56,378 nucleotides of DNA, from positions 1-56,378 of the IMG/VR virus record IMGVR_UViG_3300037961_003088; one strand, written 5' to 3'. How positions within the stretch are numbered: the stretch's first letter is position 1; the number at the start of each line of letters is the position of its first letter. The position numbers and the translations under genes are program-made. A model generated the notes under the pieces. The model was not told the origin of the DNA and made no database searches. It saw only the letters and a list, made by a program, of their open reading frames with translations. Shown in pieces: positions 1-51,427 of the stretch. Source of the DNA: a virus (lineage: Duplodnaviria; Caudoviricetes).

Positions 1-196
1 CTGGGATAGTATCTTTGGCAAGAAAGATCATGGCACTAAAAGGAAGGACACCAAACAAAGCTGAAAGAAAGCACATGGACAGAGTTTCTCAGATAGGCTG
101 TATTGTTTGCAGAAATCTCGGTTATGGTTATGTGCCAGCAGAAATACATCATATAGAGGGTAAAACTAAAAAAGATAGTCATTTAAAAGTATTACC
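1..196 (+). repeat. Terminal direct repeat, copy 1 (assembly circularisation overlap)
   Basis: Identical to 56183-56378 except pos 47 (G vs A at 56229) and pos 119 (C vs A at 56301). Confidence 0.97.
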
Positions 197-41502: not shown

Positions 41503-41560
41503 ATGTGCAATTTATGTGGCGGTAGATTGTTGTCATTAATGCCAAAACAATGGAGGACTT

Positions 41561-42859: not shown

Positions 42860-42987
42860 TCTAAAGCTTAAAAGCTTTACTGATGAAAGTGTAAACTTAT
42901 TAACATACTTATCGCTTGATAGTCTGTTGATGGTCTATGAAGACCGAAATCAGTAAATTTTAACATTTAAAAAAATGGAGGTTTTAA

Positions 42988-44076
42988 ATGAGTGTTAATC
43001 CAAAATTAGCTAAACAGCTAATGTCGAAAATTTTAGAAGGTGGCAATGTGCCATTTCTATTAGGTGGAACTGGAGTTGGTAAATCTGCTCTAGTTTTTGA
43101 AGTTGCTCAGGACTTAGCAAATGGTCGTGAGATAGTTGTAGATAATGTTAAACCAAATAAGGAGGAATTTGGTTTCATTGATTTTAGACTTTCGCTTTAT
43201 GAAAGTATTGATCTTGGCGGTTTACCCTATATTGATCTTAAAAGTAACCAACAATGTAGAGCTTTTTTAGGTAACTTGCCTGTAGCTAACGAAGGTTTGT
43301 TGTTTTTAGATGAATTTGCTCAGGCTCATAGTTCTGTTCAGGCGGTATGTGGACAGTTGCTATACGACAGAAGACTTGGTGAATATAAGTTTCCTGATGG
43401 ATGGCATATTGTTTGTGCTGGTAACAGAGCAAGCGATAGGGCTGGTTCTACACACTTGCCCTCTATGGTTACACAACGTTGCACAATGATTGACTTTGAA
43501 GCTGATTTTAGTGATTGGCTCGCTTGGGCTTTAGAAAATGATGTTCATGGTTCGGTAACTGGTTTTTTACAGTGGCAAAGTCAGTATTTAAGAAAATTTG
43601 ACAGTAAAGATACAAAGGCACAGCCCTCACCTAGAAGCTGGGTAAGGTTAAGTGACACTATGAAAACTGCTCCCTCAAATAATCTTATACCTAAGTTAGC
43701 TGAGGGTGATGTTGGTGAGGAAGCTTCTTTAGAGTTTACAAACTTTGTAAACATGATTGATGAAGTTCCTAATTTATCTGACATTCTTAGCGGTAAAGAT
43801 GTAGATACTCCTGAAAAAGCTGGAGTTTGTTTTGCAACAGTTGTAGCCCTAGTAAATGCTATTACTAATGAAGCTAAGGGTAATAAAGCTGGCTCTAAGG
43901 ATCTTTATAAGTTCTTTGATCATGCTCTTTCTTATATTCAAAAATTTGCTACTCCTGAATATTCGATATTTTTCGTTAGACAAGTGACAAGCAAAAACGA
44001 AATGCTTAAAGATACAAGTACCTTTAGCAAATTTAAGATCGATAACGTAGATGTAGAGTTTGGAGGTGGTGAATAA
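42988..44076 (+). CDS. MoxR-like AAA+ ATPase
   Basis: Walker A GGTGVGKS, Walker B LLFLDE, AGNR sensor, PSPRSW. Confidence 0.9.
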   Translation: MSVNPKLAKQLMSKILEGGNVPFLLGGTGVGKSALVFEVAQDLANGREIVVDNVKPNKEEFGFIDFRLSLYESIDLGGLPYIDLKSNQQCRAFLGNLPVANEGLLFLDEFAQAHSSVQAVCGQLLYDRRLGEYKFPDGWHIVCAGNRASDRAGSTHLPSMVTQRCTMIDFEADFSDWLAWALENDVHGSVTGFLQWQSQYLRKFDSKDTKAQPSPRSWVRLSDTMKTAPSNNLIPKLAEGDVGEEASLEFTNFVNMIDEVPNLSDILSGKDVDTPEKAGVCFATVVALVNAITNEAKGNKAGSKDLYKFFDHALSYIQKFATPEYSIFFVRQVTSKNEMLKDTSTFSKFKIDNVDVEFGGGE

Positions 44077-44630
44077 TGCCTAAGACAATAACTAAAAAAT
44101 TTACAATTTATGATCTTGAAGATTTAAAAAAAGATAATAAATTGTGCGACAGAATATATGCAGAGTTTTGGCTGGATAGTAGCAACACTAATGCTTGGCT
44201 AGACGAAAATATTAGAAGTTTAGAAGCTTTTGCTAAAACTTTATACATGACATTAAACTACGAACTATCCGATAATCTACATGGTGATTACAGAGATTTT
44301 ATAGTGCTAACACCTAAAGATGATTTCTATGCCTTAGAAAACAAAAACTATAAAAAGTTGTTAAAAAACTATGAGGGTATTGGCTATTATATGTGCGAAG
44401 ACCTAAAAATATTCACCTTAAAACTATTAGATAAAAAAGAATATAAAGTTTTAGATGAAAGTTCTACTAAGAAATTTAAACAAGAAATAGAAAATAGAAT
44501 GTTGAGTATGTGGAGATTAGATAATGCTCACCATTTTTCTAAAGAGAATTTTTTAGAAGTTGTAGAAGGTAACGATTACAAATTTTATGAAGATGGTACT
44601 TTATATAAGGAGAACGAAGATGAGCAATAA
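44076..44630 (+). CDS. Hypothetical protein
   Basis: Coupled ORF; IYDLEDL start and NDYKFYEDG end. Confidence 0.65.
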   Translation: MPKTITKKFTIYDLEDLKKDNKLCDRIYAEFWLDSSNTNAWLDENIRSLEAFAKTLYMTLNYELSDNLHGDYRDFIVLTPKDDFYALENKNYKKLLKNYEGIGYYMCEDLKIFTLKLLDKKEYKVLDESSTKKFKQEIENRMLSMWRLDNAHHFSKENFLEVVEGNDYKFYEDGTLYKENEDEQ

Positions 44631-44952
44631 TTTTAAACCAATACATTTTTACAATCATAGTACCAATGAAAGTTTTCAAATAACTTCAAGGAAAGGATTG
44701 ATAAATTGGATAAACGATTTTACAGAAAATCATAATGCTTTTGATTGCTATGAGGAATTAAAAGAAAGATGTTTAGAGAGAGAGAAGATGAAAGTTAAAG
44801 ACCTTATAAAGACTTTAAAAAAGTTTGACGATAATGATGAAGTAATTTTCTATCATCTAAAAAATCATAATCTTGAAAGTTGTAAATTTGAAAGTGTTAT
44901 AGAAACTGAATTAGGTGTTGAACTAACAATAGAGGGGGTGTCTGATGAGTGA
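44620..44952 (+). CDS. Hypothetical protein, possibly two fused small genes (internal start MKVKDLI at 44788)
   Basis: AAGGAG RBS at the first start; internal purine-rich RBS + ATG. Confidence 0.55.
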   Translation: MSNNFKPIHFYNHSTNESFQITSRKGLINWINDFTENHNAFDCYEELKERCLEREKMKVKDLIKTLKKFDDNDEVIFYHLKNHNLESCKFESVIETELGVELTIEGVSDE

Positions 44953-45964
44953 TATAGGAAATCATTTATCTGAAACCGCCACATTAGTGAGGTTTACTAC
45001 TAAATTTTGGAGTGGAATTAAATCGGATAAATTCTTAGAAAAAAAATTAGTAGAAAGTACTAATTGCGATAAAGGTTCTGTTAATGCACAAAAATATTTA
45101 GTGGGAAAAGAATATGCTAAACATTTCAGGAGCATTATTAATCAAGTTAGAAATGAATATTATTACCCTTTAACTTTAGCTTGGGATGATAATACTCACG
45201 ACAATGATGGAAAGGTAGTAAGTGGCTGGAGATTATGTCCTAACAGAAATTTAGATAAGCTTGTATATGAATTAGATAAAGCTGAGATAAATTTTAAGAA
45301 AGAAGTTAGAGGATTTATCAAAGATTATCCTACTTTGATCTCGGAAGCTAAACAGAAGCTGGGTGAAGCTTTTAATATAGAAGATTATCCACAGCCTGAA
45401 AAACTTGTAACCTATTACACAGATAATGAGGGCAAAGAAAGAATGAGAGGTAAATTTCGTTTTGACGTAAAGTTTAATGAAATACCTAACTGGGCTGAAC
45501 ATAAAGGCAAAGATGTAAGGTTAAATATTTCTAGCTCTGTAATTAACAGAATAAAAAATGACGTTGAAAGCAGAGTTCTAGTTAATAGAAACAATTCTAT
45601 GAAAACTTATTTAAAGGACATAGAAAAGAAAGCCTACGACTTAGCAGAACGTTTAGCTAATTATGATCCTAAAGATAAAAAAAATAGAAGTTTTTTTAAA
45701 AATCAAGGCATTAATACTTTACGTGGGATAGTCCAAGTTCTGCCTAGTATGAATGAAGACGTATTCGGTAATGATGAAACTATTAATGAAATCCATCAAA
45801 AATTAGTTGTTGCTTTAGCTGGCATAGGAAATCCTGAAGAACTGAGGGAGGATAGTGCAACAGCAAAAGAGAAAAGGGCTAATATTAGTACTAAGTTAAA
45901 AAAAGCTGTAGATCCTATTAATCAGGGTTTTATGGATCAATTAGCTGGGGGTGGTAATGACTAA
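44945..45964 (+). CDS. DUF3150-like protein
   Basis: WSG.K.D...K.L...TLAWDD..GWRL.P...FIKDYP...LGEAFN.EDYP pattern; context with AAA and vWA genes. Confidence 0.6.
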   Translation: MSDIGNHLSETATLVRFTTKFWSGIKSDKFLEKKLVESTNCDKGSVNAQKYLVGKEYAKHFRSIINQVRNEYYYPLTLAWDDNTHDNDGKVVSGWRLCPNRNLDKLVYELDKAEINFKKEVRGFIKDYPTLISEAKQKLGEAFNIEDYPQPEKLVTYYTDNEGKERMRGKFRFDVKFNEIPNWAEHKGKDVRLNISSSVINRIKNDVESRVLVNRNNSMKTYLKDIEKKAYDLAERLANYDPKDKKNRSFFKNQGINTLRGIVQVLPSMNEDVFGNDETINEIHQKLVVALAGIGNPEELREDSATAKEKRANISTKLKKAVDPINQGFMDQLAGGGND

Positions 45965-47303
45965 ATATCCAAAGATAGTTCTTTGTCGAGCAAGATTGAT
46001 GAAAGAGAATATAGGTTTGGCAAGTATGTTAATGCCTTTACCATTAATCGAAGACGATACGTTACCTACAATGGCTACAGATGGAACTTGTATAAGATAT
46101 AATCCATCTTTTGTTGAAGAGCATTCTAGTGAGCAAATTCAAGGAGTTTTGATACATGAAGCTTGCCACGTTCTTTTTGAACATCCTTTAAGAAAAGGTA
46201 AAAGAAATCATAAGCTGTGGAACGTTGCTTGCGATTATGCGATAAATAACTACTTAATTTACGACACTGATATTGATCTTGTTGAGGGCGGTATGTGGGA
46301 TATAAAGTATAGAGGTATGAGTGCTGAAAAAATCTACAGCATTTTAGATGAAGATGAAAAAAGTTTTAAAAAGGCTATTGATCAAATGAATAATCAAAGA
46401 AATTTTGATAAAGCTAACAATGATCAATCCTCTAGTCCTGATACTGATGAAGATAATACTGCTGATGATCAAGATAATTCTAAATCTTCAAATAATGAGG
46501 AAGAGAAAAATCTTGGTGATAAGTATGACCAAATTCCTGAAAGTATTGGTGAGGTCTTTACTCCTGTTGATGAAAATGGAAAAGAACTTAGTCATGTAAA
46601 AATGCAAGAAATCAGCGAAGAAATTAAACGTAATGTACATATGGCAGATAAGTATTGTTCAATGGATGGAACTGCTGGATTAACCGAAAGTATTAAAGGA
46701 GATCAATTAAGCAAAATTCGTTGGAATGATCACTTACGAGAAAGTCTTACAAGTATTTTTAAGACTGAAACAAGCTGGAAGTCTTTAAATAGAAGACATC
46801 AATTTAGAGGAATACACTTACCTGCTAGAAATGTCGCTGGTAAAGGTGGTATTGTTGCGATTGCAAACGACACTTCAGGGAGTGTCACTTCGCAAGAATT
46901 AGAATACTATGCCAGCGAAAGCCAAAAAATATTAGAGGATTGTGGTATAGAGAAAGTCTATGTTTGTTATTGCGACAGCACTGTTAGGAAAAATGATAAA
47001 GGTGAGTGGTGGGATATATATGATCTTACTGCTGGAGATACTTTAAATTTTGAGCCTAGAGGTAGAGGAGGTACAAGATTTGAACCAGTATTTAATTTGC
47101 TGGCGGATTACACTGAGCAATTAGATGAAATACAAGCCTTAATATATTTTACAGATGGTTATGCTACTATCAGTCAAGACTACGAGCCTGATTTTCCAGT
47201 ATTTTGGGGAATATCAAGCAATTTAGAAACCGAAGCACTAAGGGAATACATTCCATTCGGAGAATTAATCAAAATTGACAACGAAGATTGTTATAGAGAT
47301 TAA
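45957..47303 (+). CDS. Metallopeptidase-vWA protein (DUF2201-like)
   Basis: TMATDG, LIHEACH (HExxH), WNVACDYAIN; MIDAS DTSGS, GGTRF, FTDG. Confidence 0.9.
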   Translation: MTKYPKIVLCRARLMKENIGLASMLMPLPLIEDDTLPTMATDGTCIRYNPSFVEEHSSEQIQGVLIHEACHVLFEHPLRKGKRNHKLWNVACDYAINNYLIYDTDIDLVEGGMWDIKYRGMSAEKIYSILDEDEKSFKKAIDQMNNQRNFDKANNDQSSSPDTDEDNTADDQDNSKSSNNEEEKNLGDKYDQIPESIGEVFTPVDENGKELSHVKMQEISEEIKRNVHMADKYCSMDGTAGLTESIKGDQLSKIRWNDHLRESLTSIFKTETSWKSLNRRHQFRGIHLPARNVAGKGGIVAIANDTSGSVTSQELEYYASESQKILEDCGIEKVYVCYCDSTVRKNDKGEWWDIYDLTAGDTLNFEPRGRGGTRFEPVFNLLADYTEQLDEIQALIYFTDGYATISQDYEPDFPVFWGISSNLETEALREYIPFGELIKIDNEDCYRD

Positions 47304-47317
47304 TATGCCTTAAATGA

Positions 47318-47345
47318 GTAGAACACTATTTAGGTAGTGTTCTAC
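47318..47345. other. Perfect 11-bp hairpin after the vWA gene
   Basis: GTAGAACACTA-TTTAGG-TAGTGTTCTAC; no U-tract. Confidence 0.7.
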
Positions 47346-47512
47346 CATGCCTTAGACCAAATAAACTCGTTAGAAGCGAAATTAGGAGGTCGAAATTTTA
47401 CAAATTACCAAAATTTAGACATTTATTGATCTAAAAGTATCTTTTGTTGTTTAAAAAACAAATTTTACTTTTTCGCTGGTTCGTTTAGTGATCGTAAAAA
47501 GGGGGGGGGTAA

Positions 47513-47538
47513 GTTTCTCCCACCCTAGAGGGAGAAAC
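47513..47538. other. 9-bp hairpin next to a G9 run
   Basis: GTTTCTCCC-ACCCTAGA-GGGAGAAAC. Confidence 0.65.
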
Positions 47539-47665
47539 GTAAAATATTTTTGATTGTCTTTTAAAAACATAGACTAGTTAATATTTTTAGATGGGGGCGA
47601 AAAAAACACGCAAAACAGTGCAAAAACATATTTTACTTATTAGATATTTTGATAGTCTTAATTAC

Positions 47666-48190
47666 GTCAATACAGAACCTCCATTGTTCTTATGACTTTG
47701 GTAGAGAGTTTGACAAGACTATTTATTACTCATATTAGTGTTATTGTCAGGTAGTAGTTTTTCTTTAACACTATAGAAGTCTGCTTCATTATAAATCCTA
47801 GATTTAATTCGGGGATATGGAGTGACGATAAATCTTGTCATACTCTCCTATCAATCCCCTAAATTATTAGGAACAATTTAGAGGTCTGTTTGGCACTTTA
47901 GTCTTCCTAACAGTATTGATACTGACTGTCAGACGACTTAAAAAGTGCAAGTATCTAGTCTGATTTTTCTCATTTAGCGAGGGGTTTGAACAGACGATAA
48001 ACAACAAAGCCAATATGTGCAGTCCGATTTCCCACACGTGTGGAGGTTTAGATAGACTTAAAACTAAAAGCCACAATTTGCGAGGCAACTGTTTTGCTAG
48101 TTTCAAAGTCTTAAACAAATAAAAAACTAGCTTCGGACTAGTCTAGTCTATATATATCGAGTGACTGTTGATCGACAACTCTCTCAGTTT
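47666..48190 (+). ncRNA. Candidate large structured ncRNA (~520 nt)
   Basis: Extended -10 TGATAGTCT at 47650-47658; consecutive helices including a ~35-bp irregular duplex (47698-47735/47815-47854) and repeated covarying hairpins; G-U pairs favour the + strand. Confidence 0.65.
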
Positions 48191-48231
48191 TGTAAAAGTT
48201 TGATTTTATTTTGTATTTATGTATGATATTT

Positions 48232-48330
48232 GTTAGTAGTTTTAATTTTCCCTATTATTTAAAACTATGTAACTATAATGTCAATAAGTTTTTTCCTATA
48301 TTCATATAAATAGGGTTCAATTCAGAACCT
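48232..48330 (+). ncRNA. Candidate small RNA with pyrimidine-rich loop
   Basis: TTGATT-16-TATGAT promoter (48200-48227); TAGTTTTAA/TTAAAACTA stem with TTTTCCCTATTAT loop; two further hairpins. Confidence 0.4.
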
Positions 48331-48455
48331 TGCAATTACTTTCATAATGAACGTCTATGTGGTTAAAAAAAACGCAGACCAGTAAATATTTTTCTAGCAG
48401 GAGATCCCATGTGTTCGCTGTGAGCTTTTCTGATTCTAAACATAATTAATAGATC

Positions 48456-48495
48456 CACGCTTTATTAAATCTATGCACGCTTTATTAAATCTATG
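48456..48495 (+). repeat. 20-bp perfect tandem repeat x2 (partial third copy at 48574-48588)
   Basis: CACGCTTTATTAAATCTATG twice. Confidence 0.9.
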
Positions 48496-48632
48496 ACTGA
48501 TAAATATTTTTATCTCACCCAAGAACGATTCCAAGACTGTTTAGTAGGTAAAAAAAATTTCAGGTGGTGAAGAGCTTATTAAATCTATAACTAGTAAATA
48601 TTTTTCACGCAGGCGTGCAAGAAATTAGTGCG

Positions 48633-48680
48633 TAATACGAATACTAACACTAATACTAACACTAATACGACTACTGATAC
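48633..48680 (+). repeat. Degenerate hexamer tandem repeat
   Basis: TAATAC/GAATAC/TAACAC/TGATAC-type units, about 8 copies. Confidence 0.75.
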
Positions 48681-48724
48681 GTTAAATATTTCATTATGAT
48701 TGCAAAATGATTTATAATTTTTAA

Positions 48725-49030
48725 ATGTTTGCAGTTGTTAGACATACTTTTGAAATGGACACTGAGGATAAATATGCTTCAGTAGGAGAGTGGAAACATA
48801 ACGTATGGCTGTTTGATACTGAAGAAGAAGCAATGACTTTTGCAGTGACGTTATTAGATAATCCTATACTCTTAGCTAATGCCCATTCCTTAGCTTATGC
48901 TGTAGAAACTTTACGAACAGGAAAGTATTTTCAAGTAGGCAGAGAGAGTGTTGCCATAGGCAAAGTTCAAGACAAAATAAAAGTTATTGTAGAAAACGAG
49001 GATGAAGATGGAAAAAAATTTATTCATTAG
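48725..49030 (+). CDS. Hypothetical protein, probably leaderless
   Basis: TATAAT at 48713-48718 with 6 nt between it and the ATG; no SD. Confidence 0.65.
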   Translation: MFAVVRHTFEMDTEDKYASVGEWKHNVWLFDTEEEAMTFAVTLLDNPILLANAHSLAYAVETLRTGKYFQVGRESVAIGKVQDKIKVIVENEDEDGKKFIH

Positions 49031-49241
49031 GTGTAGTGAAGAAACTTATAAACTTGCTCATGCTTTGGCTCATAAAGAAAGTCGGTCTTTAAATAAACAG
49101 ATTATTCATATGATACATAAGGAAGCAGAGAAACAAGATTTAGATATTAAGGAAATAGAAAATAGTACTTTAGTAAAAGAAAAACCTCAAATTAAATTGG
49201 GTTTGCAATCGCTTGCTGAAACAAAGATACAGGAGAATTAG
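49002..49241 (+). CDS. Arc-like ribbon-helix-helix DNA-binding protein
   Basis: LFIRCSEETY......A.KESRSLNKQIIHMI. Confidence 0.8.
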   Translation: MKMEKNLFIRCSEETYKLAHALAHKESRSLNKQIIHMIHKEAEKQDLDIKEIENSTLVKEKPQIKLGLQSLAETKIQEN

Positions 49242-49713
49242 TATCTATATACCAGTAGTTGAGTAAAGCATGACTACATTTTTTTAAAACTAATACTTCG
49301 ATCTTTGATAGTTTTTTTGGCTCACTTGTCATTATGTGCCAAAACATCCTTTCGTTTTCAACTCCACATGACTTTCTCAACACTCTTTGTACTTTAATTA
49401 AAATTAAAGATTTGGGAGGCTGAAAAAAACTATGACTAGTAAATATTTTTTCTCTTGGAGATGAATCCGTAATCCCAAAAGTGCCTGATGTGTGAATTAA
49501 ACCAAGATATTTATCGCAAGCATTATGTTCAAATTCACTAATTTTTTTGTCTAGAAATAACTGATCTATTATATGTTGATTGTAAACTATGGCTCTGCCT
49601 AAATTACTACGACCTATCTGTGCAACACCTATTTTTTTTTGTTTGTGTAAATAAGTATTTCCTAGCTCATTAAAATGTAGCTTCTTTTTATATTTCCCAG
49701 TCGAAGTTGTCAT
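49192..49713 (-). CDS. Hypothetical protein downstream of primase-helicase
   Basis: Coupled ORF; IDQLFLDKKIS..EH.A helical motif. Confidence 0.6.
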   Translation of the reverse strand: MTTSTGKYKKKLHFNELGNTYLHKQKKIGVAQIGRSNLGRAIVYNQHIIDQLFLDKKISEFEHNACDKYLGLIHTSGTFGITDSSPREKIFTSHSFFQPPKSLILIKVQRVLRKSCGVENERMFWHIMTSEPKKLSKIEVLVLKKCSHALLNYWYIDTNSPVSLFQQAIANPI

Positions 49714-51427
49714 CTGCTTCTTCTTTTTCTTTATATCTGCCATTTACAGAATTAAAATCCATATTAACACTTCCTAACTTACCTTGCCAGCCCCATCTAG
49801 CTTTCCAAGAGTGTATCTGAACTCCGTCTTCTCCTCTAAAAACTGTTACTCCAGTGTCTGCTTTTGAAAACCAAGCATAAGATTTTGCTATATCAACACC
49901 AGTAGCTATCTGTTTTTTACTTCTGTCCATTGGTTTAGTTGGGTGAGCTACGAACATGACTAAGCAATCATGTGCTTTGGCAAACAGTTGAACTTTTGTA
50001 AGCATATCTGAAACCATGTCTGTTTCTAAAGCATATTGTTTGTCTGTCTGTATAAAATTAAATGGATCAATTACTAATATTCTTATGCCATACCTCATAA
50101 CAGCACTTGCTCCTTTTTCTAAAATGGCTTCTATTGTAGGCATATCTCCGTCTAAATAATCTTGAAAAAGAATATGTTCTTTTATCCAGCTTTCAGCATA
50201 ATCTTTCTCCTCTTGTGTCATTCTTTCGTTCACTCCCTTAAAAAATGGCTTACCAGTGATAATTTGTGAGAGTTGCACACTATGAAGTTGCGGTGGTTTT
50301 TCAAAAGAACAAAAGCAAGTTTTCCAGCCATTATTACGACCTACATTTACTATTAATTGATCAATAAATGCTGATTTACCATCCCCAGCATGACCAGTAA
50401 AAATGTAAAGGTTGCCTGTTGTAAGAGTAAAAAGTTTATCTACACTCGCAAATCCAGTTGATACACCGCTAGGCATACCTTTATCGTATAAACTCTGAAA
50501 TGCTTCTGCATAACTGTCTATGGTATTTAAGTTGTGCAATGGTATTGGCTCGCTATCTAAGACTTGTTTTACTAATACATCTTTACCCTCGCTTATTAGC
50601 AATTCATTGCTATCTTTATAGCCTTTATAATCTACTCTATAACATCTTGCCTTGTTTAATCTTCTAGAAAGTTCATCTGCTAGTATATCTCCAGCGAGAT
50701 CGCTATCCGTTGCCAATATAATTCTTTTTTTGTTCTCAAACTTTTCCCTTTCATTCCAAACGTATTTAAATCTACCATCTTCGCTAGGATCTACTTTATT
50801 ATCTGATATTTTGTTTGGACTGCCATTTGGTACTGAATAAACTTCTAAATTTGCAACGTCTTTGAAAGCAGTTCTAATTGCAAGGCAATCCATTTCACCC
50901 TCTGTTACAACGATAGTATCTGATAAATCTAACTCTTTATTGTCTAATTTTTTATCATATGTAAAATTACCCCATAGCCTTTGTGCATTACCATCCCACC
51001 AAAACAATTTATCCCCATTTGCTGTCCTAAATTTTACAGCTTCAACTCCATCCTCTGCAGGATAGGTAAAAGCTATGACTGGTTTATATTTTTTTTCTGT
51101 CGCCAGACATCCAGATTTTTTTGCTACATCAGGACATATTTTTCTATCTTTTAACCATTGCACTGCTTTTTCATTTTCTAGTTTTGGCACATCTACCTTT
51201 TTTTGTTTTTTCACTATATTAAGTTTTGTGGACACATTGTTATTAACGATACCATTTTCACCGCAATGGTGACAGTAATAAGCGACAGTATTATTATCCT
51301 TATTTACTGATAAAGGTCTATCTCCTTTATTCTTGGTTCTACTGCTTTGACACACAGGACATTTAATCTTATGTTGTCCGTGTTGTAAATTTCTAGTGCT
51401 ACATTCAATTTCTGTATTGACATTCAT
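49688..51427 (-). CDS. Primase-helicase (T7 gp4/Twinkle-like)
   Basis: CPVC...CHHC Zn finger, TOPRIM TEGEMD and ATDSD.AG, Walker A GHAGDGKS, IDP, VAHPTK. Confidence 0.92.
   Translation of the reverse strand: MNVNTEIECSTRNLQHGQHKIKCPVCQSSRTKNKGDRPLSVNKDNNTVAYYCHHCGENGIVNNNVSTKLNIVKKQKKVDVPKLENEKAVQWLKDRKICPDVAKKSGCLATEKKYKPVIAFTYPAEDGVEAVKFRTANGDKLFWWDGNAQRLWGNFTYDKKLDNKELDLSDTIVVTEGEMDCLAIRTAFKDVANLEVYSVPNGSPNKISDNKVDPSEDGRFKYVWNEREKFENKKRIILATDSDLAGDILADELSRRLNKARCYRVDYKGYKDSNELLISEGKDVLVKQVLDSEPIPLHNLNTIDSYAEAFQSLYDKGMPSGVSTGFASVDKLFTLTTGNLYIFTGHAGDGKSAFIDQLIVNVGRNNGWKTCFCSFEKPPQLHSVQLSQIITGKPFFKGVNERMTQEEKDYAESWIKEHILFQDYLDGDMPTIEAILEKGASAVMRYGIRILVIDPFNFIQTDKQYALETDMVSDMLTKVQLFAKAHDCLVMFVAHPTKPMDRSKKQIATGVDIAKSYAWFSKADTGVTVFRGEDGVQIHSWKARWGWQGKLGSVNMDFNSVNGRYKEKEEADDNFDWEI

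Follow-up and report, generated by a model that had tools for sequence, protein, structure and literature searches.

What does a marine phage encode in 1.4 kb of DNA that holds no gene? The question is raised by a window of 56,378 bp, the whole of the virus record IMGVR_UViG_3300037961_003088 (Duplodnaviria; Caudoviricetes). The contig is rated 96% complete, has a G+C content of about 32% and is present as near-identical DNA in marine and estuary metagenomes from several studies. It has no close cultured phage, its primase being less than 32% identical to that of any GenBank phage. The gap, at 47304-48724, is flanked by the gene for a DUF2201 metallopeptidase/VWA protein and by two small plus-strand genes, and a primase-helicase gene lies farther along on the minus strand. 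A sequence-only reading had placed in this gap, at 47666-48190, a candidate highly structured non-coding RNA (ncRNA) of about 520 nucleotides (nt), possibly of an undescribed class, with ROOL and GOLLD named as known large RNAs of phages. That observation is partly confirmed and its interpretation partly supported. The gap does encode a discrete ncRNA, which in seawater RNA samples far out-accumulates the neighbouring genes, but this is not one fold of about 520 nt comparable to ROOL or GOLLD; the conserved units are pseudoknot modules of 50-65 nt that move, duplicate and drop out independently. As a whole, the locus is probably best explained as an expressed plus-strand chain of such modules, a member of an undescribed marine phage family and likeliest a nuclease-resistant leader.

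A discrete RNA from the gene-free gap

The claim that 47304-48724 contains no credible open reading frame (ORF) is correct. The sole ORF of at least 60 amino acids (aa) is an 83-aa frame with a TTG start on the minus strand (47867-48118), and it matches no Pfam family. In a strain of 92.5% identity (L289) the frame is down to 58 aa with a different N-terminus, and the alignment of PK1 homologues described below (A1) has 1-nt insertions and deletions across it. Because the frame is neither kept in this close strain nor respected by the homologues, it is considered not coding.

Expression of the region is seen in metatranscriptomes. Six RNA runs contain about one tenth of the words of the gap, and four of them were mapped as contigs onto 46300-49800. 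All four yield one contig of 290-318 nt, at a depth of 10.5-12, over the gap RNA. These contigs run from 47679 (47678 in one run) to 47774, are joined there directly to 47828 and continue to 48019-48022; they differ from the window by one substitution (C47930T) and one inserted T, and match an L289-like strain. Contig cover, from which a filter may drop records, is zero at 46300-47678 in the four runs and beyond 48172 (to 49800) consists only of a short variant contig at 48633-48680 in one run. The lack of cover over the flanking genes while the RNA is present argues against DNA carry-over. In one run an Illumina-type adapter follows immediately after 48019, suggesting that many fragments end there. 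Smaller RNA contigs from other phages contain PK1- or PK2-type sequence and, in other contexts, the 53-nt module described below, so that other members of the family are transcribed too. The RNA thus exists as a discrete species that extends from about 47679 to at least 48020 and probably reaches about 48131. The 3' boundary first drawn at 48190 is not supported: the tail 48132-48190 has no RNA contig cover and 48128-48215 folds no better than shuffles (z +1.13). Nor is there support for the proposed closing pair between the two ends, AGAGAGTT/AACTCTCT, the RNA contigs stopping short of 48176.

The accumulation of this RNA without its neighbouring genes is one argument for a trans-acting decoy or sponge, in which knots released from the early transcript would titrate an RNA-binding factor that is conserved among hosts, for example an RNase, a defence protein or a ribosomal protein. 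Titrating decoys of this sort are found among CsrB-type RNAs and pseudo-antitoxin RNAs. The layout of the window is a second argument for it, because the first gene after the RNA region is 590 nt away, across repeat-rich DNA. This explanation is taken up again below, beside the distribution of the modules.

Pseudoknot modules of the 3' half and the strain-specific 5' domain

In the 3' half of the RNA, H-type pseudoknot modules that each fold independently follow one another as a chain: M0, PK1 in two tandem copies, and PK2. These are the best-supported structures of the region, and as pseudoknots they were not among the helices listed in the sequence-only reading.

47893-47955, plus strand: M0 pseudoknot, with P1 (47900-47903/47935-47938), a hairpin stem (47907-47914/47925-47932) and a loop-to-tail helix (47918-47923/47950-47955)
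47957-48020, plus strand: PK1 copy a, with P1 (47958-47962/47991-47995), P2 (47968-47971/47979-47982), P3 (47983-47988/48005-48011) and a linker to 48020
48021-48081, plus strand: PK1 copy b, a diverged tandem copy, with P2 CCAC/GUGG (48032-48035/48040-48043)
48082-48131, plus strand: PK2 pseudoknot, with S1 (48082-48086/48108-48112) and S2 (48096-48103/48124-48131)

The structure of PK1 is derived from alignment A1, which contains 62 distinct copies after removal of identical ones and of a single copy truncated at the end of its contig. Helix P1 is AGUCUG/CAGACU, the hairpin P2 inside loop 1 is CCAC/GUGG or CCUC/GAGG, and P3, which interleaves with P1, is GGUUUG/CAAAGCC or, in a second subclass, GUGUUU/AAACAC. 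Across the 62 sequences 87.6% of 1021 cells are paired, compared with 76.1% in shuffles, and none of 500 shuffles reaches this value. Both sides have changed in 8 of the 17 pairs, and covariation is 0.244 compared with 0.082; when the structure is slid by 1-3 columns, covariation is at most 0.10. RNAalifold recovers P2 and P3 unaided. Copy a of the window is found by nhmmer with an E value of 5.6e-15 and scores 72.5 bits with the covariance model, and copy b scores 52.6 bits (E 8.2e-11; nhmmer E 0.0032). The U-rich loop 1 (UUU; T13-T15) and the A-rich loop 3 with its P3 strand (AAA.AA.CAAA) are nearly invariant in the 62 sequences. A helix CAATG/CATTG considered for the class A subclass was rejected, as L013, L022, L049 and class B do not conserve it.

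SAM-II and preQ1-II are built as H-type knots in which a U-rich and an A-rich loop are combined with an embedded hairpin, and PK1 could accordingly be viewed as the ligand-binding aptamer of a riboswitch-like sensor that uses PK2 and the ribosome-binding site as expression platform and tunes early operons to host metabolism. The occurrence of tandem copies in the window and in three other loci (L020, L147 and L150) and the position of PK1, mostly 54-260 nt upstream of the start codon of the first gene, would suit such a sensor. However, none of the Rfam riboswitch models gives a match even with E values up to 10, no mutually exclusive pairing of aptamer and platform was found, and in L079 the array is located between a stop codon and a terminator. 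The downstream genes are diverse rather than those of one metabolic pathway or transporter: among 10 downstream proteins sampled, one is a T7-type primase-helicase, one a DUF932 protein and 8 have no Pfam or PHROG family. A sensor is therefore judged improbable.

The other two modules show the same kind of change. In M0 (alignment A4, n=16) the hairpin covaries as C(U/C)AACAGU/ACUGUU(A/G)G, and the loop-to-tail pairing GAUACU/AGUAUC is swapped for GUUGUU/AACAAC, CUACU/AGUAG or GCUAC/GUAGC. The paired cells amount to 96.6%, 5 of 18 pairs have changed on both sides, and covariation is 0.261 compared with 0.118 in shuffles and at most 0.10 in slid controls. Where the window has an A-C mismatch (47909/47930), the RNA contigs and relatives have a U-A pair. 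The inner helix CAGTAT/ATACTG of the sequence-only reading is replaced here by the conserved, covarying helix CTAACAGT/ACTGT(C/T)AG with its loop-to-tail pseudoknot, and the helix GCACTTT/AAAGTGC is present but kept in only some relatives. In PK2, stem S2 (GCUAGU/ACUAGC) is identical with the previously noticed helix GCTAGTTT/AAACTAGC and covaries, for example as GCTGGT/ACCAGC. It is crossed by a variable S1, and 26 distinct PK2 variants are known. S1 occurs as GACAG/CUGUC, CACAG/CUGUG, GUGUCU/AGACAC, AAGACU/AGUCUU and GAGUU/AACUC, and in the window as GAGGC/GUCUU. The S1 test was run on trimmed segments because the untrimmed version is confounded by pairing between U runs and A runs. For 17 distinct 5' segments the best helix has a mean of 5.06 bp, compared with 4.33 +/- 0.21 bp with permuted partners, and 7 of 5000 permutations reach it; since relatedness inflates such tests, this support by permutation is moderate. 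PK2 was also considered as a general intrinsic terminator and rejected, a U run following only a minority of its copies.

A candidate fourth knot module, PK-x, was noticed by eye. It consists of UAGC/GCUA or TATC/GGTA crossed by UGGAU/AUCCA or AGGAT/ATCCT, with a conserved TTAAAGTATAA loop, and is seen in relatives (L013 5400-5480) and in a 108-nt insertion after 47877 of L286 and L288, its presence varying between near-identical strains.

The features of the 5' half and the sequence before it are as follows.

47650-47658, plus strand: putative extended -10 TGATAGTCT, present in the sequence; the RNA contigs begin 20 nt downstream
47666-47696, plus strand: 5' hairpin with a CCUCC-containing loop (-6.0 kcal/mol, z -2.47)
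47700-47849, plus strand: long irregular duplex domain, with arms 47704-47726/47828-47847 around a hairpin at 47736-47773 (inverted repeat I1)
47775-47827, plus strand: 53-nt insertion module, which forms an extended hairpin within the duplex domain
47858-47872, plus strand: small local hairpin CCTAA/TTAGG, which is CCTAAT/ATTAGG in close strains (alignment A3)

The 5' hairpin and the long duplex with its inner hairpin TAGTGTTA/TAACACTA had both been described in the sequence-only reading and both stand. The duplex and its inner hairpin are part of the minimum-energy fold, and the domain 47700-47849 has an energy of -42 kcal/mol compared with -29.2 +/- 3.4 kcal/mol (z -3.75). The 5' arm of the 5' hairpin has no RNA cover, and the hairpin is identical in three aligned close strains (L286, L288 and L289). 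According to the RNA contigs 47679-47898 belongs to the expressed RNA, and the strain-specific 5' domain of hairpin and long duplex would be part of the same RNA as the 3' modules. Apart from the movable 53-nt hairpin, the homologues found for the 5' half are only near-identical (92-98%), so covariation, which supports M0, PK1 and PK2, is uninformative for this half and for the long duplex. A 20-mer from the 5' arm of the duplex occurs in four near-identical metagenome contigs only, and an exact 20-mer from the 3' arm has no match in viral contigs. Copies of the 53-nt module with 90.6% identity are present in two unrelated leaders (L108 and L140); the module sits in the apical region of the duplex, which remains when the module is lost. 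The helix CCTAAATT/AATTTAG is not retained, since its z is -0.39 and in L286 and L288 its arms are separated by the 108-nt insertion. The 5' hairpin has a loop (47676-47688) that could pair with the ribosome-binding regions of two early genes, being complementary to 41546-41558 with 2 mismatches and to 42971-42983 with 1 mismatch. Anti-Shine-Dalgarno targeting by this loop was rejected, since the genome-wide count of 31 matches with at most 3 mismatches, compared with 22 expected, is reached by 6 of 100 shuffles and is not significant overall.

The folding energy of the whole region bears on the strand. On the plus strand 47666-48190 folds with -130.8 kcal/mol compared with -114.2 +/- 6.3 kcal/mol in shuffles (z -2.64; 1 of 100 shuffles as good), and the better-than-shuffled fold anticipated for the RNA is to that extent present; the minus strand folds better still in silico (z -4.66). 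Thermodynamics alone therefore neither proves an RNA nor picks its strand. Taken piece by piece, the later modules as nested structures fold no better than shuffles, which is expected because their conserved folds are pseudoknots. The G-U pairs that had been taken as a sign of plus-strand RNA do exceed A-C pairs, by 32 to 5, in the RNAalifold register of PK1, but by only 14 to 9 in our P3 register and 4 to 3 in M0. Promoters upstream and Shine-Dalgarno sites with ORFs downstream on the same strand in relatives, together with the G-U excess, favour the plus strand, and it is likely that the RNA is read from it.

Distribution, turnover and possible function of the modules

Relatives were collected through the primase (46 loci) and by scanning viral contigs for a sequence pattern (at least 117 loci) and screening the matches with nhmmer; more family members exist. 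In comparison with the primase relatives, the gap is conserved only at 47899-48008 and 48078-48133. PK1 is present in 13 of the 46 primase-relative loci and in 64 of 117 pattern-found viral loci listed, and the family has at least 82 nhmmer matches at E <=1e-3. Each of five near-complete genomes has exactly one PK1 locus, which contains either a single copy or two in tandem. The stretch homologous to the gap is in most relatives on the opposite side of the primase gene, in the divergent region that heads a recombination operon, with a ribosome-binding site and a 52-aa gene immediately after it; recombination proteins and an SSB are encoded by the operon that follows the array in L013-type genomes. 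A same-strand ORF of at least 35 aa with a Shine-Dalgarno site is located within 900 nt downstream of PK1 in 59 of 65 rows, a few of these calls being doubtful, and the orientation of the array relative to its flanking genes is constant. Promoters that match TTGACA-16..18-TATAAT at 11 or more of 12 positions were found in 15 of 62 distinct upstream regions (8 of them perfect) and in 5 of 111 control windows, and the 12 promoters within about 310 nt stand 116-311 nt before PK1. The modules make up an undescribed family that is known to date from uncultured marine viral contigs alone. A genome has them at a single locus, on the sense strand, before the first gene of early operons of varied kinds and often behind consensus host-type promoters. 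In most relatives they are the leader of a protein-coding operon and not an RNA gene of their own. Perfect TTGACA-17/18-TATAAT promoters precede PK1 in L162, L155, L106, L051 and L053, with strong GGAGG ribosome-binding sites, which suggests a host with classical sigma-70 and Shine-Dalgarno usage and so probably not a member of the Bacteroidota.

The expectation that the RNA lies outside known families is borne out. None of the 4227 models of Rfam 15 matches the whole window at the gathering score, and in permissive mode (E up to 10) only SCARNA15 (16.4 bits compared with a cut-off of 65) and snoJ33 appear in 47200-48800, both of which are noise; the leaders of relatives likewise give noise only. 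ARAGORN detects no tRNA or tmRNA. Searches of GenBank phages by blastn, with the whole gap and, at E up to 1, with PK1 plus PK2 of L073 and L013, gave no match, and no description of these modules was found in the published literature, searched at the level of titles and abstract openings. Among 120 pattern matches listed from bacterial and archaeal genomes there is no true PK1 (best nhmmer E 0.0087), a result that describes a sample and is no proof of absence from cells. As in ToxI-like arrays, each unit is a pseudoknot, with interleaved helices that covary, but an array of near-identical units of about 34-45 nt is not present: the tandem PK1 copies are diverged and measure 64 and 61 nt, TRF reports no tandem array in 47666-48190, and no ToxN/AbiQ-like toxin gene lies downstream in the window or among the 10 downstream proteins sampled in relatives. 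The boxA motif (GCTCTTTAACAA-like) of antitermination leaders of the rrn or lambda nut type has 15 matches in the window at 2 or fewer mismatches, compared with 13.1 by chance, and none on the plus strand of the gap.

Module turnover is best seen in four metagenome contigs that are 92-98% identical to 47000-49300 and in which nearly every difference from the window is the gain or loss of a whole module. The 53-nt hairpin at 47775-47827 is missing from all of them, as it is from the RNA contigs. L286, L288 and L289 have a single PK1 in place of two and a different PK2 variant, L287 ending before that region, and L286 and L288 have an extra 108-nt PK-x block. Close strains therefore differ by gain and loss of whole modules. 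Variation of module order and number between near-identical strains would be natural for a selfish mosaic intergenic element, whose modules spread by recombination among phage genomes like REP/BIME and are transcribed and tolerated without specific benefit. It also agrees with such an element that the array lies on different sides of the primase gene in relatives, that it adjoins unrelated genes and that PK1 is missing within 6 kb in 21 of 34 close primase relatives, which makes PK1 dispensable. However, there is one locus per genome in all five genomes, with no within-genome spread, orientation to the flanking genes is constant, and the three interleaved helices are kept by compensatory changes, with invariant loops. 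These changes and loops imply selection on the RNA fold, and an element of no benefit appears quite improbable.

A function in cis is tentatively favoured: as a leader resistant to nucleases, the knots would protect the early transcripts of the phage against host RNases and would persist as a stable fragment. It is preferred because the arrays stand at the head of early operons, the knots belong to the compact triple-helix type and the fragment, which ends 8-11 nt past P3, persists longer than its neighbours. The U-rich loop 1 and the A-rich loop 3 would form base triples with P3 and P1, of a kind known from other H-type knots, making the knots compact and mechanically tough. A 3'-to-5' exonuclease that stalled at PK1 would leave such a 3' end, 8-11 nt beyond P3; 3' exonucleases typically stall around such a distance past knots. 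A bolder and somewhat more doubtful proposal is that of a new RNA class, an evolvable chain of interchangeable triple-helix pseudoknot modules (M0, PK1, PK2 and the candidate PK-x) heading early transcripts, which might serve as RNase-proof knots or as host-factor decoys and be swapped within strains of more than 92% identity in an arms race with host RNA decay or defence.

Several observations weigh against an expressed plus-strand leader. The expression evidence consists of contigs from RNA runs alone, and these contigs carry neither strand information nor true ends; their ends can be assembly breaks, the adapter junction is present in only one run, and the 5' end at 47678/47679 falls inside the predicted 5' hairpin, at the first base of its loop. 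The better fold of the minus strand and the small G-U excess outside the RNAalifold register count against the choice of strand. The alignment is less diverse than its size suggests, many of the aligned PK1 copies being near-identical (effective number of sequences 3.65), and in the class A subclass P1 retains three pairs only, with about half of the cells unpaired at three P1 positions. The absence of PK1 from so many close primase relatives points the same way. In the relatives a sigma-70 promoter upstream and a same-strand gene downstream give the layout of an early-operon leader, whereas a consensus sigma-70 scan of the window, including 47650-47658, found no promoter, and the 590-nt stretch to the next gene is without RNA cover, which fits a stand-alone RNA better than a message-protecting leader. 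In L079 (4900-5160, minus strand of the locus) the M0-PK1-PK2 array begins 40 nt past a stop codon, and after it come a G-rich hairpin resembling a terminator (z -2.47) and a TTGCAT-16-TATCAT promoter for the homologue of the 101-aa gene of the window, so that an array can end a transcription unit rather than head one.

The main rival of the protective leader is the trans-acting decoy introduced above, which fits the window's own layout better. Its repeated units, varying in copy number among strains 92-98% identical, are what an arms race would produce, and the loops and linkers UUUUU, AAACAACAAA and UGC are nearly invariant across phages with differing gene content. Its difficulties are that no partner is known, that no ToxN-like gene lies nearby and that the sampled cellular matches reveal no host RNA to mimic. 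Moreover, most relatives have a gene whose ribosome-binding site directly adjoins the last module, with no terminator after this module and a U run after only a minority of PK2 copies. A decoy is considered unlikely, and a leader that protects early transcripts is still the preferred function.

Surrounding DNA and comparison with known systems

The AT-rich DNA between the RNA and the next gene contains tandem repeats at 48456-48495 (20-nt unit CACGCTTTATTAAATCTATG, two copies) and 48640-48668 (12-nt unit AATACTAACACT, 2.4 copies), which could mark a replication origin. A motif AGT(A/T)AATATTTTT occurs on the plus strand exactly at 47576, 48381, 48593 and 49438 and with 2 mismatches at 48499 (spans 47534-47588 and 48357-48691), with longer 30-nt copies at 48482 and 48576; the motif may represent a promoter array, operators or iterons. 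The copy at 49438-49450 is antisense inside a 183-aa ORF, and sequence resembling the copies at 48479-48603 is found in the homologous ORF of L010, L013, L014 and L017. In view of these repeats the RNA might be a transcript made towards the repeat-rich, AT-rich 48350-48720 that primes or activates DNA replication there, as ColE1 RNA II and the T7 origin promoters do elsewhere. The iteron-like 20-nt, 30-nt and 12-nt repeats just downstream would agree with this, as would the repeated location of the array near primase-helicase genes, which are the first downstream ORF in at least 5 distinct pattern-found loci. But the RNA contigs end before the repeats, in most relatives an ordinary gene rather than a repeat region follows the array, and the primase proximity is biased because 46 loci were fetched through the primase itself. 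An origin transcript is thus very improbable, the least probable of the explanations considered.

Upstream, the operon that ends at the gap (42988-47303) encodes an AAA_5 (MoxR-like, weak match) ATPase, a protein with a weak DUF3150 match and the DUF2201 metallopeptidase-VWA protein. A search of viral contigs with the VWA protein found one distant relative of 43% identity, and the gaps there have no DNA similarity to the present one. Right after the DUF2201/VWA gene is a very stable hairpin (47314-47348; -18.1 kcal/mol, z -4.89), flanked by the direct repeat ATGCCTTA and without a U run, which may be a terminator or an insertion scar. At 47503-47539 a run of nine G is followed by a hairpin GTTTCTCCC/GGGAGAAAC and by a further copy of the TAAAATATTTTT motif. 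The 101-aa protein encoded downstream of the gap matches no Pfam family.

The gap holds a member of a real and apparently undescribed RNA family of unusual modular build, whose function we can only infer. Phage structured RNAs are far less charted than phage proteins, and this one is widespread in uncultured marine phages and abundant in ocean metatranscriptomes, above the phage's own messages. Its design, small self-contained pseudoknots strung together and reshuffled between near-identical strains, is unusual and provides a concrete model for the protection or regulation of early transcripts or the disarming of host factors. Being compact knots, the modules might in addition find use as parts for stabilising RNA.

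Comparison with known systems shows partial likenesses. The GOLLD, ROOL and IMES motifs of Rfam were, like the present RNA, found by structure and conservation in phage and marine sequence and are highly expressed with orphan function, but they are each one large fold, whereas here modules of 50-65 nt are shuffled between strains and have no Rfam 15 match. SAM-II, SAM-V and preQ1-II share with PK1, which has an embedded hairpin, the interleaved two-helix knot, the U-rich loop 1, the A-rich loop 3 and the position in a 5' leader, sometimes in tandem; PK1 differs in having no covariance-model match, no coherent downstream genes and no known ligand, and its base triples are inferred only. ToxI, CptI, TenpI and the phage pseudo-ToxI decoys also consist of tandem pseudoknot units ahead of a gene, in numbers that vary by strain. 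Their repeats are identical and 34-45 nt long, while the units described here are diverged, measure 60-67 nt, and have no ToxN/AbiQ-like gene downstream in the window or in the 10 relatives sampled; among the bacterial genomes sampled no copy was found. Gene 32 of phage T4 also has an H-type pseudoknot in an untranslated leader, that of an early or replication message, but in the present family several knots of at least three families stand in a row before many unrelated genes, and no autoregulating protein is identified. The xrRNA and dumbbell arrays of flaviviruses are likewise tandem, variably duplicated pseudoknot modules that survive as an abundant fragment (sfRNA). They belong to the 3' untranslated region of an RNA virus and block a 5'-to-3' exonuclease by a ring fold, whereas the present modules belong to a DNA phage, occupy a leader and have an end that suggests 3'-to-5' trimming. 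Finally, the REP/BIME elements of enterobacteria are also intergenic mosaics of a few unit types in variable number and order, transcribed and able to stabilise messages, but they are simple palindromes present in hundreds per genome, while the modules of this phage family are pseudoknots at one locus per genome.

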